This document shows, piece after piece, positions 54,002 to 62,508 of a DNA stretch of 64,000 nucleotides. Under the pieces are notes generated by a model. That model was not told the origin of the DNA and ran no database searches. It was given only the letters and a program-made list of their open reading frames with translations. Source of the stretch: Myxococcota bacterium (GTDB taxonomy: Bacteria; Myxococcota_A; UBA9160; UBA6930); assembly GCA_965223415.1 (NCBI GenBank), contig OZ245002.1, forward strand, positions 736,001 through 800,000. Direction: 5' to 3'. Numbering within the stretch: position 1 is the first letter of the stretch; every line of letters starts with the position of its first letter. Position numbers and translations under genes: made by a program.

Positions 54002-55027
54002 ATGCGCCTGACGATGATGGGAATGTGGATGGGGATCGGCCTCTGCCTGGTCTCGGCAGTCTTCGCGACGGCGACCGCCGCCGAAACGCCCGATGCCTCC
54101 GCCCTGCGGGAACGTGTGGGCGCCGCCTTCGGAGCCTTGCCGAAGGAGGTCCCGAATCCGGCCAACCGGGTGACCGAGGCGAAGATCACCCTCGGCCGGC
54201 TCCTCTACTACGACGAACGGCTCTCCCTCGCCGACGACATCAGCTGCAACTCCTGCCACCAGCTCGACCGCTTCGGCGTCGACGGCGAGCCCACCTCTCC
54301 GGGCCACGAAGGCCAGCGCGGCGACCGCAACTCGCCGACGGTCTACAATGCCGCCCTCCACGTCGCCCAGTTCTGGGACGGCCGCGAGCCGGACGTGGAG
54401 GCCCAAGCCAAGGGCCCGATCCTGAATCCGATCGAGATGGCGATGCCCTCCGACGCCGCCGTCATCGAGAAGCTGCGCGGCATCCCCGGCTACGCGCCGC
54501 TCTTCGCCGCGGCCTTTCCGGACGACAACGACCCGCTCAGCTACGACAACCTGGCACGGGCCATCGGCGCCTTCGAGCGCAGGCTCAGCACGCCGGGCCC
54601 CTTCGACGCCTTCCTCGCCGGCGACGACGCCGCTCTGGACGAGACCCAGCTGCGCGGTCTCGCCGCCTTCTTCGACACCGGCTGCACCACCTGCCACTCC
54701 GGCGCCGCTCTCGGCGGCGGCATGTTCCAGAAGCTCGGCCTGGTCCACCCCTACGAGACCGAGGACACCGGTCGCATGAAGGTCACGGGCAACGAGGCCG
54801 AGAAGCACTTCTTCAAGGTCCCCTCCCTGCGCAACATCGAGAAGACCGGCCCGTGGTTCCACGACGGCAGCATCAGCGACCTCTCGGAGGCGGTGCGGCT
54901 GATGGCCTGGCACCAGCTCGGCGTCGAGCTCGACGCGGCGGCCACGGCCGACATCATCGCCTTCCTCGGCGCCCTGACCGGCGAGGTGGACGCGGCGTAC
55001 ACGAAGGAGCCGGAGCCCGTCCAGTAA
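54002..55027 (+). CDS. Diheme cytochrome c peroxidase (CcpA/MauG family)
   Basis: Signal peptide; CNSCH and CTTCH; QFWDGR; FKVPSLRN; FHDG. Confidence 0.93.
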   Translation: MRLTMMGMWMGIGLCLVSAVFATATAAETPDASALRERVGAAFGALPKEVPNPANRVTEAKITLGRLLYYDERLSLADDISCNSCHQLDRFGVDGEPTSPGHEGQRGDRNSPTVYNAALHVAQFWDGREPDVEAQAKGPILNPIEMAMPSDAAVIEKLRGIPGYAPLFAAAFPDDNDPLSYDNLARAIGAFERRLSTPGPFDAFLAGDDAALDETQLRGLAAFFDTGCTTCHSGAALGGGMFQKLGLVHPYETEDTGRMKVTGNEAEKHFFKVPSLRNIEKTGPWFHDGSISDLSEAVRLMAWHQLGVELDAAATADIIAFLGALTGEVDAAYTKEPEPVQ

Positions 55028-55897: not shown

Positions 55898-56590
55898 CTA
55901 CCGTTCCCCCCGCCGCTGCTCGTTCACCAACGTGTGCGCCCGCCGCGTCGCCTCCGGCAGGCGGAATCGGGGCGCGCCGCCGAGGACGATGCGGCACGCG
56001 GTCTCGAGGGAGACGCGATGGCCGATCGAGACGAACACGGGCTTCACGCCGGTTCGCGTCCGCAGCACCCGCCCGACCACCTCCCCCTCGTGGCGCAGCT
56101 GTACGGCGGCGCCGCGGCGGGGACCAGGCTCTCGATGCTCGCCGACGAGGAGGCTCTTGGCACAACCGAGGGTGGGCCGGTCGAGCACGACGCCGAGATG
56201 ACAGGCCAATCCGAAGCGGCGCGGGTGGGCCAGGCCATGGCCGTCGCACACGATCACGTCCGGGAGGGTTCGCAGCTTCTCGAAGGCGGCGAGCAGCGGT
56301 GGGATCTCGCGGAAGGAGAGGGTTCCCGGCACGTAGGGGAAGCGGACCTCGTGGCTGACGGCCACCTCCTCCACGGGCTCGAGGCTGGCGGCGTCCAGGA
56401 CGGCGACCCCCGCGTGCAGCAGGGGGCTCCGCTTGTCGAAGGACACGTCCACGCCGGCCACGGTGCGGGGCGCGGCGACGCCGGGGGCGTCCTCGCGGAC
56501 GACCCGGTCGCGCAGGCGCTCCTGGATCGCCCGAGCCGCGGGGACGTCCACGTCCCATGCGTGCCGCAGCCTGGGTCGGAGGCCGCTCAG
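55898..56590 (-). CDS. nfi: Endonuclease V; probable CTG start overlapping the sucA stop
   Basis: GVDVS, FPYVPGTLSFRE, DGHGLAHPRRFGLACH, GCAKS, VSIGH, RLPE. Confidence 0.92.
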   Translation of the reverse strand: MSGLRPRLRHAWDVDVPAARAIQERLRDRVVREDAPGVAAPRTVAGVDVSFDKRSPLLHAGVAVLDAASLEPVEEVAVSHEVRFPYVPGTLSFREIPPLLAAFEKLRTLPDVIVCDGHGLAHPRRFGLACHLGVVLDRPTLGCAKSLLVGEHREPGPRRGAAVQLRHEGEVVGRVLRTRTGVKPVFVSIGHRVSLETACRIVLGGAPRFRLPEATRRAHTLVNEQRRGER

Positions 56591-59454
56591 AGGCCCTGGA
56601 AGGCGGCTTCGAGGATGGCCGCCTGCTCGGCCCGGTGGACGCGACCGGAGCCGGTGGCCGGGCTCGCGTGGGAGGGACGACCGGCGTAGCCGAGCTTCGA
56701 GAGGGTGCGCAGCTGGCCCTGCAGCCGCTCGCGCACGAAGGTCCAGGGGCCCATGTTGGCCGGCTCTTCCTGGACCCAGAAGACGCCCTCCGCGCGGGAG
56801 TAGCGCTCCATGATCCGGTCGATGATCTCCTCGGGCCAGGGATAGAGCTCCTCGACCCGGACGATCGCCACGTCGCCGGCGGCGTCGCCCGCCGCCACGC
56901 CGTCGCGCTTCTCGCGGTGGGCGAGCAGGTCGTAGTAGACCTTCCCGCTGCAGCACAGCACCCGGCGCACGACCGACGGGTCGAGCACCGCGGGATCGTC
57001 GAGCACCGGCTGGAAGCCGCGGTTCACGAAGTCCGCCACGTGGGAGGTGGCTCGCGGTGCGCGCAGCAGGCTCTTCGGCGTGAAGATGACCAGCGGTGCC
57101 CGGTAGGGCCGGCGCATCTGGCGGCGCAGCACGTGGAAGTACTGGGCGGGCGTCGTGCAGTTCGCGACCTGGAGGTTGTCCTCGGCGCAGAGCTGGAGGA
57201 AACGCTCCATCCTCGCACTCGAGTGCTCCGGGCCCTGCCCCTCGTAGCCGTGGGGCAGGAGCATCGCCAGCCCGCTCATGCGCTGCCACTTCACGTGGGC
57301 CGACGTGATGAACTGGTCGATGATCACCTGGGCGCCGTTGGCGAAATCGCCGAACTGGGCCTCCCACAGGGTGAGCGTGGTCGGGTCGGCCAGGCTGTAG
57401 CCGTACTCGAAGCCCAGCACCGCGGCTTCGGAGAGGTGGCTGTCGTAGACCTCGAAGCGCGCCTGGGTCTCGGAGATGTGGTCGAGGGGTGCGTACTCGA
57501 CGCCGGTCTCCTGATGGACGAGGACGGCGTGACGCTGACTGAAGGTGCCCCGGGAGCTGTCCTGGCCCGAGAGCCGCACGGGAGTCCCCTCGACGAGCAG
57601 GCTGCCGAAGGCCAGCGCCTCGCCGGTGGCCCAGTCGATGGGGGAGTCCTCGGCGACCACCTTGCGTCGCTTGTCGAGCACCGCGGCGAGCTTCTTGTGC
57701 ACCTCGAAGTCGCCCGGCACCTCGGCCAGCGCTTCCGCGATCCGGGCGAGTCGCTCGACCGGCACCGTGGTCTCGCCGTCGTCTCCCGGATCGGTCCGCA
57801 AGAAGCCCGACCAGGGCCCCCGCGGCTCGTAGGGCTCGTCCGGGCCGGGCGGCTTGGTCTTGATGATCTGCAGCGCTTGCTGGAGCTGATCGTTCAGGTC
57901 CTCTTCGATCCGCTCCACGTCCGCCTGGCTCAGGGTGCCGCCCCGCACCAGCTGCTCGGTGTAGATCGCCCGCAGCGAATCCTTGTTGCGGATCTTCCGG
58001 TAGAGGACCGGGTTCGTGAAGCTCGGCTCGTCGCCTTCGTTGTGGCCGTGGCGGCGGTAACAAAGGAGATCGATCACGACGTCGTCGCCGAAGCGCTGGC
58101 GATAGGCGAAGGCCAACTTGGTCACGTGGACCACCGCCTCCGGATCGTCGCCGTTCACGTGGAAGATCGGGATCTGGATCATCTTCGCGACATCGGTGGC
58201 GTAGAGGGTCGAGCGCGCTTCCTGGGGCGTGGTGGTGAAGCCGATCTGGTTGTTCACCACGACGTGCAGCGTCCCGCCCACCGAGTATCCGTTCAGGTGG
58301 GAGAGGTTCAGCGTCTCCGGAACCATGCCCTGGCCGGCGAAAGCGGCATCGCCGTGCAGCAGCACGGGCACCGTCTGCCAGCCCTTCTCGTCACCGCTCC
58401 GGATCTGCTTCGCGCGGGTGCGGCCCACGACGACCGGGTCGACGGCCTCGAGATGGGAGGGGTTGGCGGTGAGCGAAAGGTGGATGCGCTCGCCGGAGCG
58501 GGTGCGGCGGTCGCTCGAGTAGCCCTTGTGGTACTTGACGTCCCCGGAGCCGAAGGGCGAATCGTGCTCCTCCACGTCCTCGAACTCCGAGAACATCGCC
58601 TCGAGGCTCTTGCCCATGATGTTGGAGAGGACGTTCAGACGTCCGCGATGGGCCATGCCCAGCACGATCTCGCGGGCGCCGCGGGCCGGCGCCTCCTCGA
58701 CGACGGTGTCGAGCAGCGGGATCAGGGCCTCGGCGCCCTCGAGGGAGAAGCGCTTCTGCCCGATGAACTTGGTGTGGAGGAAGCGCTCGAAGAGCTCCGC
58801 CGCGCAGATCTTCTCCAGGATGCGCAGGCGTTCCTCGGGGAGCTGCGTGGTGTCGTTCTCGTGCTCCTCCATCTGCTGCATCAGCCACTGGCGCCGGCCG
58901 GGATCCTGGATGTGGGTGAACTCGACGCCGATCTTGCGACAGTAGGTGGAGCGCAGCCGGTCCAGGATCTGGGCGAGGGTCTGGATCGGGCCGCCGGGAA
59001 GATCGCCGGCGAAGAAGGGCTGCTCGAGGTCGTCGTCGCCCAGGCCGTAGTGGGCGGGGTCGAGCTCGGGGAAGTCAGCCGGCGCCGGGGTGAGGGGGTT
59101 CGAATCGGCGATGCGGTGGCCCCTGGCGCGGAACGCGTGGATCAGCCGCAGCACCCGGGCGTGCTTCTCGGCGACCTGGGGGCTGGCGATCGCGTGGAGC
59201 GCCTCGGTGGCCGGCGCCGGCTCGGTCCGGACGGGAGCCCGGTGCGCAGGGGGCGCTGCAGGCTCGCGGCGGGCCTTCGGCCGGTCCTCGAACAGCTCCG
59301 CCCAGCTGGCGTCGACGGACTCCGGGTCGAGGGCGTAGCGATCGCGGATCTCCGCGACGATGCCCGCGTTCACTCCGAAGCCGGCGAGGGCGGGCTTCTT
59401 CTCGCCCTCGCCGCGCGCGCTCTCTGGGCGGCCCTTGTGGCTCAAGGCGCTCAC
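56587..59454 (-). CDS. sucA: 2-oxoglutarate dehydrogenase E1 component
   Basis: KRFSLEG, GMAHRGRLN, HGDAAFAGQG, GHNEGD, WEAQFGDF, GPEHSSAR. Confidence 0.97.
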   Translation of the reverse strand: MSALSHKGRPESARGEGEKKPALAGFGVNAGIVAEIRDRYALDPESVDASWAELFEDRPKARREPAAPPAHRAPVRTEPAPATEALHAIASPQVAEKHARVLRLIHAFRARGHRIADSNPLTPAPADFPELDPAHYGLGDDDLEQPFFAGDLPGGPIQTLAQILDRLRSTYCRKIGVEFTHIQDPGRRQWLMQQMEEHENDTTQLPEERLRILEKICAAELFERFLHTKFIGQKRFSLEGAEALIPLLDTVVEEAPARGAREIVLGMAHRGRLNVLSNIMGKSLEAMFSEFEDVEEHDSPFGSGDVKYHKGYSSDRRTRSGERIHLSLTANPSHLEAVDPVVVGRTRAKQIRSGDEKGWQTVPVLLHGDAAFAGQGMVPETLNLSHLNGYSVGGTLHVVVNNQIGFTTTPQEARSTLYATDVAKMIQIPIFHVNGDDPEAVVHVTKLAFAYRQRFGDDVVIDLLCYRRHGHNEGDEPSFTNPVLYRKIRNKDSLRAIYTEQLVRGGTLSQADVERIEEDLNDQLQQALQIIKTKPPGPDEPYEPRGPWSGFLRTDPGDDGETTVPVERLARIAEALAEVPGDFEVHKKLAAVLDKRRKVVAEDSPIDWATGEALAFGSLLVEGTPVRLSGQDSSRGTFSQRHAVLVHQETGVEYAPLDHISETQARFEVYDSHLSEAAVLGFEYGYSLADPTTLTLWEAQFGDFANGAQVIIDQFITSAHVKWQRMSGLAMLLPHGYEGQGPEHSSARMERFLQLCAEDNLQVANCTTPAQYFHVLRRQMRRPYRAPLVIFTPKSLLRAPRATSHVADFVNRGFQPVLDDPAVLDPSVVRRVLCCSGKVYYDLLAHREKRDGVAAGDAAGDVAIVRVEELYPWPEEIIDRIMERYSRAEGVFWVQEEPANMGPWTFVRERLQGQLRTLSKLGYAGRPSHASPATGSGRVHRAEQAAILEAAFQGL

Positions 59455-61245: not shown

Positions 61246-62508
61246 CTAGGCGGCCCGCACGTGACCGCGGCCGATCGAGTCCAGACTGGGCGCGCCCATC
61301 TGCCTCATCGTCGTCGCGAGCTCCGCCCGCAGGATCCGTAGCACGGCTTCGACCCCCGCCTGGCCGAAGGCCGCCAGGCCCCACAGATAGGGCCGGCCGA
61401 CGCAGACCGCGGAAGCCCCGAGTGCAATCGCCTTCACGATGTCCGTTCCACGGCGGAAGCCGCTGTCGACCAGGATGGGAACGCGCCCGTCCACGGCGCG
61501 CGCGATCTCGGGCAGCACCTCGATCGTCGAGAGCCCGCTGTCCTCGGCGCGCCCGCCGTGGTTCGACACGACGATGCCGTCGACGCCATGCTCCATGCAG
61601 AGACTCGCGTCCTCGGGCGTGAGGATCCCCTTGATCCAGAGCTTCATCGACGTGCCGTCGCGGATCCGATCCACGTAGTCCCAATCGAGCACGAGCAGGT
61701 TCCGGATCCAGGCGTCGAGGTCGAGACCGACGGCGCCGCCCGCAGCGGCGATCCCTCGCAGGGCGTCGCCTCCGAGCGACGCGTGGCAGGAGCGGCACGC
61801 GGGGTTCTCGTCCCGACGGTAGCGGCGCATGCGGTCGCGATTGGCTCCGTTCGCCACGATGTCGGCCGTCAGGACCACGGCCGGGCATCCTGCTCCTTCG
61901 GCTCGCCTCAGCTGCGCGCGCGTCGCAGGCCACACGCGCGCCGTGTAGAGCTGGAACCAGGGCGCCTCGCCGCGTGCGTCGGCCACCTCCTCGATCGGGG
62001 TCGACGAGCCCGTGGACAGGATCATGCCGTGGTCGATGCGTCTCGCCGCACGTGCCACCGCGAGCTCGCCCTCGGGATGGAAGGCGCGCTGGCTCCCGCA
62101 GGGAGCCAGCAGGATCGGAGAGGAGAGCCGGGTCCCGAGGACGTCGGTGCGGGTGTCCACCTGCCGGACGTCCACCAGGCGCCGGGGCCGCAGCTGGAAG
62201 CGCTCGAACGCGGACTGGTTCGCGCGCAGCGTGGCCTCGTGCTGCACGCCCATCGACAGATACGTGTAGTGGGCCGGCGAGAGGTTGCGCTCCGCCACCG
62301 GCTCGAAGTCGAAGACGTCGATCGCCGCGCTCGCCTCCTCGATGATCTCGCGCGGCAGCGGCTCGCAGCCGGCCCCGGGCACGGGATCCAGGCCTCGCCC
62401 GATCGCCCAGAGAGGTCGAGCCGTGAGGAGGGGGCTGGCCATGAGGAAGCACAGGAACGACCGACGGCTCCGTGCGGCGGTCCCGGCGTCGAGGACTCGG
62501 TGCGACAT
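61246..62508 (-). CDS. FMN-dependent alpha-hydroxy-acid oxidase/dehydrogenase with Tat signal and CxxCH motif
   Basis: SRRSFL Tat motif; WFQLY, IKGI, SNHGGR, DSGFRRG, GRPYL; CRSCH at 61783-61797. Confidence 0.9.
   Translation of the reverse strand: MSHRVLDAGTAARSRRSFLCFLMASPLLTARPLWAIGRGLDPVPGAGCEPLPREIIEEASAAIDVFDFEPVAERNLSPAHYTYLSMGVQHEATLRANQSAFERFQLRPRRLVDVRQVDTRTDVLGTRLSSPILLAPCGSQRAFHPEGELAVARAARRIDHGMILSTGSSTPIEEVADARGEAPWFQLYTARVWPATRAQLRRAEGAGCPAVVLTADIVANGANRDRMRRYRRDENPACRSCHASLGGDALRGIAAAGGAVGLDLDAWIRNLLVLDWDYVDRIRDGTSMKLWIKGILTPEDASLCMEHGVDGIVVSNHGGRAEDSGLSTIEVLPEIARAVDGRVPILVDSGFRRGTDIVKAIALGASAVCVGRPYLWGLAAFGQAGVEAVLRILRAELATTMRQMGAPSLDSIGRGHVRAA

Follow-up and report, generated by a model that had tools for sequence, protein, structure and literature searches.

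The window, a 64,000-nucleotide stretch of DNA from a Myxococcota bacterium, contains a minus-strand gene (61246..62508) for a 420-aa FMN alpha-hydroxy-acid oxidoreductase, here called P0001, which was identified from its open reading frame and a PF01070 match, and which carries both a predicted Tat signal peptide and a CxxCH motif in its active-site lid. Conservation of CxxCH in the homologs of P0001 is more than chance, and the proteins that carry it make up a real clade, widespread across several phyla and apparently undescribed. Judging from its sequence, P0001 is probably a periplasmic 2-hydroxy-acid dehydrogenase that receives a covalent heme c on its lid after Tat export. The more specific architecture of a single-chain TIM-barrel flavocytochrome c, with a bis-His heme c sitting in the lid of a folded, FMN-loaded, Tat-exported enzyme without any cytochrome domain, is proposed tentatively and with somewhat less than even confidence.

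Reading frame, protein family and export signal

The translation of the 420-codon minus-strand ORF starts with MSHRVLDAGTAARSRRSFLCFLMASPLL, and the plus-strand frame at 61246-62508 meets a stop already at codon 32. The public gene call for the same gene (P0002) starts 42 codons downstream and gives a protein of 378 aa from which the signal peptide is lost; homologs support Met1 of the 420-aa ORF. P0001, which is the sole full-length PF01070 gene in its own 5.83-Mb genome, matched PF01070 (FMN_dh) with 388 bits (E 3.9e-116; gathering cut-off 24.9), and the Pfam match and the AlphaFold model place the TIM-barrel domain at residues 72-418 (61255..62295, minus strand). The AlphaFold2 model, made with a 76-sequence alignment, had a mean pLDDT of 85.9 and a (beta/alpha)8 barrel, and was aligned to human glycolate oxidase 2rdt with Z 43.0 and rmsd 2.3 over 329 aligned residues (VIA-align); Foldseek also gave a glycolate oxidase match. 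Identity to known PF01070 members was 31-42% over structural alignments, and there was no solved structure from the CxxCH clade among the PDB matches. P0001 scored under the curated cut-off of every named NCBIfam subfamily (score/cut-off 207/550 for LldD, 205/645 for LOX, 215/471 for MftD and 229/376 for PRK11197), and the database names of the clade proteins are generic, ordinary-oxidase labels.

The FMN and catalytic motifs, described as intact in a first-pass annotation of this DNA, are indeed complete, with Y83, Y188, D216, R224, K293, H317 and R320 all in P0001. By alignment, Y83, Y188, D216 and R224 equal Y40, Y146, D174 and R181 of A. viridans lactate oxidase (AvLOX), and K293, H317 and R320 sit in the expected family motifs, with catalytic His317 and Arg320 in an SNHGGR motif (61549..61560, minus strand) recognised from the sequence and homolog alignments. 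Tyr83 (62260..62262, minus strand) aligns as the carboxylate-binding active-site tyrosine, equivalent to AvLOX Tyr40, for which that role is described (PMC4908395; this and the other citations refer to the accessible part of each source), and by offset to flavocytochrome b2 residue 143. The R224 column (AvLOX R181) is Arg in only 23 of 62 diverse CxxCH members, often with an Arg two residues earlier, and activity across the clade is thus not guaranteed. Gly138, which is kept in at least 90% of the 76-sequence close-homolog alignment, and Gly167 occupy the positions of AvLOX Ala95 and Tyr124, and their small size suggests a roomy pocket. Small residues at these two positions would favour mandelate-like or long-chain substrates, and on this sequence comparison the substrate of P0001 is probably bulkier than lactate, for example a mandelate-like or long-chain hydroxy acid.

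The Tat-like N-terminus noted in the first-pass annotation was also borne out: SRRSFL occupies residues 14-19 (62452-62469) and is followed by the hydrophobic stretch CFLMASPLLTA. On the basis of sequence and homolog conservation, the predicted Tat signal peptide covers residues 1-35 (62404..62508, minus strand), with a possible cleavage site after LWA35. R15 and R16 are invariant in the 76-sequence alignment, and an RR motif was present within the first 60 residues of 108 out of 120 close sequences. This close set comprises P0001 and 119 others from the best 120 of 7996 matches, at 60-86% identity apart from the gene itself, with P0002 omitted as the same gene. Inspection of the 12 sequences lacking RR suggests a truncated N-terminus in 11 and shows a long N-extension in the remaining one. 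Both leader arginines were also found at 0.94-0.95 in 62 diverse CxxCH members, with Phe at +2, and three clade members have a lipobox-like Cys behind the leader. The twin-arginine pattern argues for Tat, and P0001 is a predicted Tat substrate on account of S/T-R-R-x-F-L and a hydrophobic region kept in homologs; TatC is present in its own genome. Conservation of the leader motif RRxFLxFLAASPL across phyla exceeds what signal peptides usually show, and the motif may bind a chaperone or the enzyme itself. Export in this family of alpha-hydroxy-acid oxidoreductases is not new as such: for PauLDH, an FMN lactate dehydrogenase of the PF01070 family, a Tat signal was predicted (PMC9670274).

A CxxCH motif in the active-site lid and the clade that carries it

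The sequence ENPACRSCHA, reported in the first-pass annotation between VLTAD and WDYV, was found there, and its CRSCH corresponds to C238-H242 (61783..61797, minus strand), a candidate heme-c attachment motif according to the sequence, homolog alignments and tree. It lies in the variable segment of loop 4, the active-site lid, which extends from D216 to W276 by alignment and model (61681..61863, minus strand). Loop 4, the link between beta-4 and alpha-4, closes over the active site and is frequently disordered (PMC4908395, PMC10153336, PMC7039449). In the model of P0001, pLDDT was 62-80 across residues 211-270, and CRSCH ends a short predicted helix (236-242).

CxxCH was present in 119 of the 120 close sequences, the sole exception being P0038, which reads FQPCH, and 107 had both CxxCH and RR. 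H80, C238, C241 and H242 are invariant in the 76-sequence alignment (62% mean column identity), and the motif flanks show 32% mean identity and variable length in an alignment of 32 loops picked for having the motif. The His of CxxCH is as constant as both Cys in members down to ~43% identity. Small or polar residues (S, A, Q, T, G) predominate at the two intervening positions and overlap with those of the own genome's CxxCH motifs; Pro at the second of them was found in 2 of 77 sequences of the diverse set, and CxPC variants are frequent in the close subclade. According to a heuristic scan of 6166 putative coding frames of the own genome, 34 were Tat-like and 62 bore CxxCH, and only the P0001 gene was both.

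Among the top 60 PDB matches of a loop profile, 59 were c-type cytochromes, a result that is largely circular as these matches rest on the motif itself. Pfam matches of the loop were mostly to cytochrome families, motif-driven and under threshold, and per-stretch E-values were mostly >1 for the PDB and Pfam matches alike; over the 32 loop sequences the Pfam matches included 7 for each of two cytochrome families and 1 zinc-ribbon, all under cut-off. The whole of P0001 matched no cytochrome Pfam domain, and the ESM Atlas search with the loop found FMN_dh clusters only. Where a lone CxxCH occurs in a known non-cytochrome fold, it is mostly a false positive, in many cases a Zn or Fe-S site (PMC4429474).

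Two further residues go with the motif. His80 (62269..62271, minus strand), three residues ahead of catalytic Tyr83 and thus one helical turn away, is clade-specific by homolog conservation and tree, and is a candidate distal heme (or metal) ligand. It was present in 73 of 76 clade tips, compared with a His80-like match in 2 of the 149 tips outside, and was absent from all 18 inspected Tat-bearing relatives without CxxCH. The value of 0.00 for His80 among 148 'others' is circular because that group was defined as lacking His80, and the tree's 2/149 was used. Arg281 (61666..61668, minus strand), clade-specific in the alignment and a possible propionate or lid contact, had a frequency of 0.90 in the 62 CxxCH members versus 0.08 in the 148 others, with Trp in the sister Tat clade. 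From the alignment ranges, His80 and Tyr83 map to flavocytochrome b2 residues 140 and 143, which we assume to be close to the heme-docking face of that enzyme, residue 143 presumably contacting a heme-b2 propionate. With CxxCH in the lid and His80 near Tyr83, both new elements map to the mouth of the flavin site. Other candidate contacts were rejected. The Met of a downstream (K/R)PM(F/Y) is not a general sixth ligand, having a Met-like match in only 34 of 77 sequences, being missing from P0001 and being replaced by Asn in others; Arg110 and Phe381 are common to Tat relatives without CxxCH.

A scan of genomes for homologs found at least 601 loci, of which the best 80 were retained, and 30 of these 80 had CxxCH in loop 4, every one with an RR leader. 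A tree was computed from barrel columns only, leaving out the leader and loop 4, with 150 representatives at 50% identity, 79 loci (without L086, whose frame was wrong) and 8 sequences from the close set of 120 as input; 225 of 237 rows, those with >80% coverage, were retained. All CxxCH carriers fell in a single clade of 76 tips (FastTree support 0.969), in which CxxCH was present in 68 tips and the RR motif in 69. Outside the clade, none of the 149 tips had CxxCH and 25 had the RR pattern, a few of them spurious. The immediate sisters of the clade are Tat-bearing and have neither CxxCH nor His80. The co-occurrence of CxxCH and Tat signal that had been raised in the first-pass annotation therefore holds one way only: all 30 CxxCH loci have the twin-arginine leader and CxxCH is confined to the clade, but several Tat-bearing sister lineages do without the motif. 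As the CxxCH clade is nested among Tat-bearing, motif-less relatives, export predates the motif. CxxCH, His80 and Arg281 were gained together on one branch, after the leader, as the sequences place them; the gain of CxxCH and His80 on one branch is a single event, for which we claim no statistical test. The case for tight coupling between motif and His80 is weakened by 6 of the 8 clade tips without CxxCH that retain His80; these are P0038 (FQPCH), P0155 (CAACN), three loop deletions and one fragment, and some of the motif-less tips may be sequence errors. P0151, a basal relative that resembles a Tat lipoprotein, reads CPACK at the motif site, has no His80, and is possibly an intermediate or a separate use of CxxC. 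Together with CAACN of P0155, it indicates that CxxC can stand without the following His.

Carriers were found in Alpha- and Gammaproteobacteria, including cultured Bradyrhizobium lablabi (L021), Acidobacteriota and Gemmatimonadota, and close protein matches were labelled Myxococcota, Deltaproteobacteria and Planctomycetota. Among relatives of the own genome the gene is patchy, with 6 of 41 genomes having it at E 1e-60 or better; a same-genus genome (G035) gave two matches, L095 and L099 (69% and 57% identity), and the motif was confirmed in L095 only. A second Tat-bearing PF01070 group, mainly acidobacterial (L044, L045, L051, L058 and L062; P0126, P0169 and P0188), likewise has no CxxCH or His80, and shows an altered loop 4 (DQQ..YYER) in which Arg is missing from the R224 column. 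A Bryobacterales genome encodes a PF01070 homolog (L043:6001-6981) that bears a Tat leader, has no CxxCH and shows an altered active site (WFQVDTS, LTLGAP); ~1.4 kb upstream of it lies a 175-aa ORF with five CxxCH motifs (L043:4058-4582), the pair being possibly a two-subunit version.

A proposed heme c and its alternatives

For an invariant C-x-x-C-H and an extra invariant His that occur only in exported proteins, the simplest reading is a bis-His heme c to which FMN would pass electrons. The nesting of the clade among Tat-bearing relatives would mean that the motif arose only after the protein had reached the compartment of heme-c attachment. In the mechanism that we propose, the enzyme would bind FMN and fold in the cytoplasm, probably as a tetramer, and exit by Tat, after which the periplasmic Ccm heme lyase would find CxxCH displayed on the enzyme's mobile lid. 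His242 would serve as proximal ligand, with His80 likely on the distal side, and the heme would lie next to Tyr83 where the flavin site opens, on the face to which yeast flavocytochrome b2 docks its heme domain. FMN would take the electrons from the hydroxy acid and hand them to heme c, from which a general periplasmic carrier or oxidase, and not O2, would receive them. Such a relay would imply a dehydrogenase, and many enzymes of the family are dehydrogenases (PMC9670274), so that the 'oxidase' label of the first-pass annotation is probably wrong and P0001 is probably a dehydrogenase.

Prokaryotic cytochrome c maturation is stated to be strictly linked to Sec, not Tat (PMC13645880), a rule with which the predicted Tat export of P0001 conflicts, and this conflict was overlooked in the first-pass annotation. 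The way out may be a lyase that acts, once export is complete, on the mobile lid. In one family member, folding and tetramer assembly were shown to depend on FMN (PMC7039449), which would explain the retention of Tat, and a precedent is provided by the split-Soret diheme cytochromes c, for which Tat signals are predicted (PMC3623810, PMC4429474). The own genome encodes CcmF- and CcmC-sized PF01578 proteins, and PF01578 was detected in 29 of 30 carrier genomes, the missing one being a 1.7-Mb assembly. Ccm genes also occur in 9 of 14 control genomes and in that of L039, a relative without the motif, and they are thus necessary but not discriminating.

C238 and C241, with His80 and/or His242, could instead form a non-heme metal site (structural Zn, redox Fe or [2Fe-2S]) that is loaded in the cytoplasm before Tat export and either latches the lid or relays electrons. 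This is unlikely in our estimate, even though it would fit the Tat route without breaking the Sec rule (PMC13645880), would account for two Cys and two His gained together in the tree, and would agree with Zn and Fe-S proteins being common CxxCH false positives (PMC4429474). Such a site does not sit well with the occurrence of CxxCH in none of the 149 non-clade sequences, most of which are cytoplasmic, or with the single zinc-ribbon match among 32 loops, against 7 for each of two cytochrome families, all of them sub-cut-off. Zinc knuckles typically carry Gly after Cys, whereas Cys241 is followed by His, and it would be unusual for adjacent Cys and His both to bind one metal.

Quite improbable, in our view, is a periplasmic C238-C241 disulfide, structural or serving as a redox switch of the lid, in a heme-free oxidase or dehydrogenase where His242 and His80 are ordinary lid or pocket contacts. 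It would explain why the motif is confined to exported proteins and why CxxC stands without His in P0151 (CPACK) and P0155 (CAACN), and the CxPC variants frequent in the close subclade have a counterpart in thioredoxins. It gives no account, however, of a His242 that is as constant as the Cys down to ~43% identity, or of the co-gain of His80; Pro at the second position is limited to 2 of 77 sequences in the diverse set, and a free, accessible CxxCH in a Ccm-positive periplasm would itself be a lyase substrate. That the leader is no working Tat signal, with Sec export, an uncleaved anchor or cytoplasmic retention making the conflict between Tat and heme only apparent, is scarcely credible, since against its short h-region and unusual conservation across phyla stand the near-constant arginines with Phe at +2 in the 62 diverse members, their invariance in the 76-sequence alignment and the lipobox-like Cys after the leader in three members.

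Known systems and genomic neighbourhood

P0001 has its fold and catalytic set in common with glycolate oxidase, lactate oxidase, 4-hydroxymandelate oxidase, (S)-mandelate dehydrogenase and LldD, and differs from these PF01070 enzymes in its Tat leader, loop-4 CxxCH and His80. Yeast flavocytochrome b2 (EC 1.1.2.3) has the same flavin domain and the FMN-to-heme-to-cytochrome relay proposed here for P0001, but its heme is non-covalent and held in a separate N-terminal b5-type domain (PMC8348568). No fused cytochrome b5-like Pfam domain was found in P0001; only ~70 residues precede the barrel and, compared with flavocytochrome b2, the protein has just a c-type motif of five residues, within the lid. 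With a real heme, P0001 would work like flavocytochrome b2 without belonging to its family. Two PF01070 dehydrogenases, PauLDH with a predicted Tat and SsLDH with a predicted Sec signal peptide, resemble P0001 in having such a leader but belong to the LOx cluster, and the accessible text on them mentions no heme motif (PMC9670274). For biogenesis, the nearest precedent is Shewanella SO0939, a heme-c protein with a predicted Tat signal (PMC3623810, PMC4429474), although it is unrelated and non-flavin and its Tat use is itself predicted. Periplasmic transfer from flavin to heme c, as proposed for P0001, is also a feature of the two-subunit flavocytochromes c (Shewanella SO1414, SO3058 and SO3301), whose flavin subunits are listed as predicted Tat substrates (PMC3623810). 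P0001 differs from them by having both cofactors on one TIM-barrel chain, with no partner gene nearby. In the two-subunit flavocytochromes c, a subunit of its own carries the heme, and the flavin fold is of the FAD type.

No description of an FMN hydroxy-acid oxidoreductase with CxxCH was found in the full-text literature, a body that leaves most subscription papers outside and includes the accessible text of PMC8491902, PMC2881027, PMC11492766 and PMC11238220. A keyword search of the PMC8491902 supplements gave neither the clade motifs nor Bradyrhizobium. Bradyrhizobium was likewise not found in the PMC9670274 supplement, which holds accessions only, and the 42 enzymes tested there could include a clade member. 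If heme is bound, the clade would break the rule that ties heme-c maturation to Sec export of unfolded chains. It would be an example from nature of heme c attached after Tat export, and would supply a simple natural substrate with which to study Ccm lyase action on a loop of a folded protein. It would also represent a new electron-exit design in a family that has so far relied on O2, on quinone or on a fused b-type domain, and would be a bacterial counterpart of flavocytochrome b2, convergent and present in several phyla. Such an enzyme would be a natural hydroxy-acid dehydrogenase capable of direct electron transfer, of the kind that the biosensor field builds by fusion (PMC8348568). If a metal site or disulfide is present instead, this would still be an undescribed exported clade labelled as ordinary oxidase in databases. 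Its cultured host Bradyrhizobium lablabi (L021) makes the clade accessible to cheap testing.

The neighbours of the gene in the window (NUDIX, methyltransferase, glyoxalase and alpha/beta hydrolase) are not recurrent, and no recurring partner gene was found besides pairs in close kin (Pfam, 71/110 flanking ORFs, 31 loci). Promoter or terminator matches were also not obtained. Within 2.5 kb, a CxxCH ORF was located at 3 of the 30 carrier loci, one of these ORFs being probably a spurious frame; the corresponding numbers were 2 of 9 for motif-less Tat loci and 2 of 41 for the remaining loci. With no CxxCH-ORF signal and no recurring partner, the neighbourhood was set aside as a functional clue, and the lack of a conserved partner gene suggests that the acceptor is probably a general periplasmic carrier.

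Some individual loci are described here as observed. A gene for a secreted di-heme cytochrome c peroxidase of the MauG family (PF03150, 178 bits) is located at 54002-55027 of the window on the plus strand, 6 kb from the P0001 gene and opposite to it. Also in the window, a 955-aa ORF at 56587-59454 (minus strand), which we take to resemble 2-oxoglutarate dehydrogenase E1, is followed by a presumably endonuclease-V-like coding stretch, which forms the end of a frame at 55898-58063 (minus strand). At one of the 30 carrier loci (L019:7100-9391), a TPP-dependent enzyme and a 112-aa monoheme cytochrome c are encoded directly downstream on the same strand, and a route from hydroxy acid to keto acid and on to decarboxylation is plausible for this set. 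In two related gammaproteobacterial carriers (L029 and L042), a gene for a TctC/Bug tricarboxylate-binding protein adjoins on the opposite strand.
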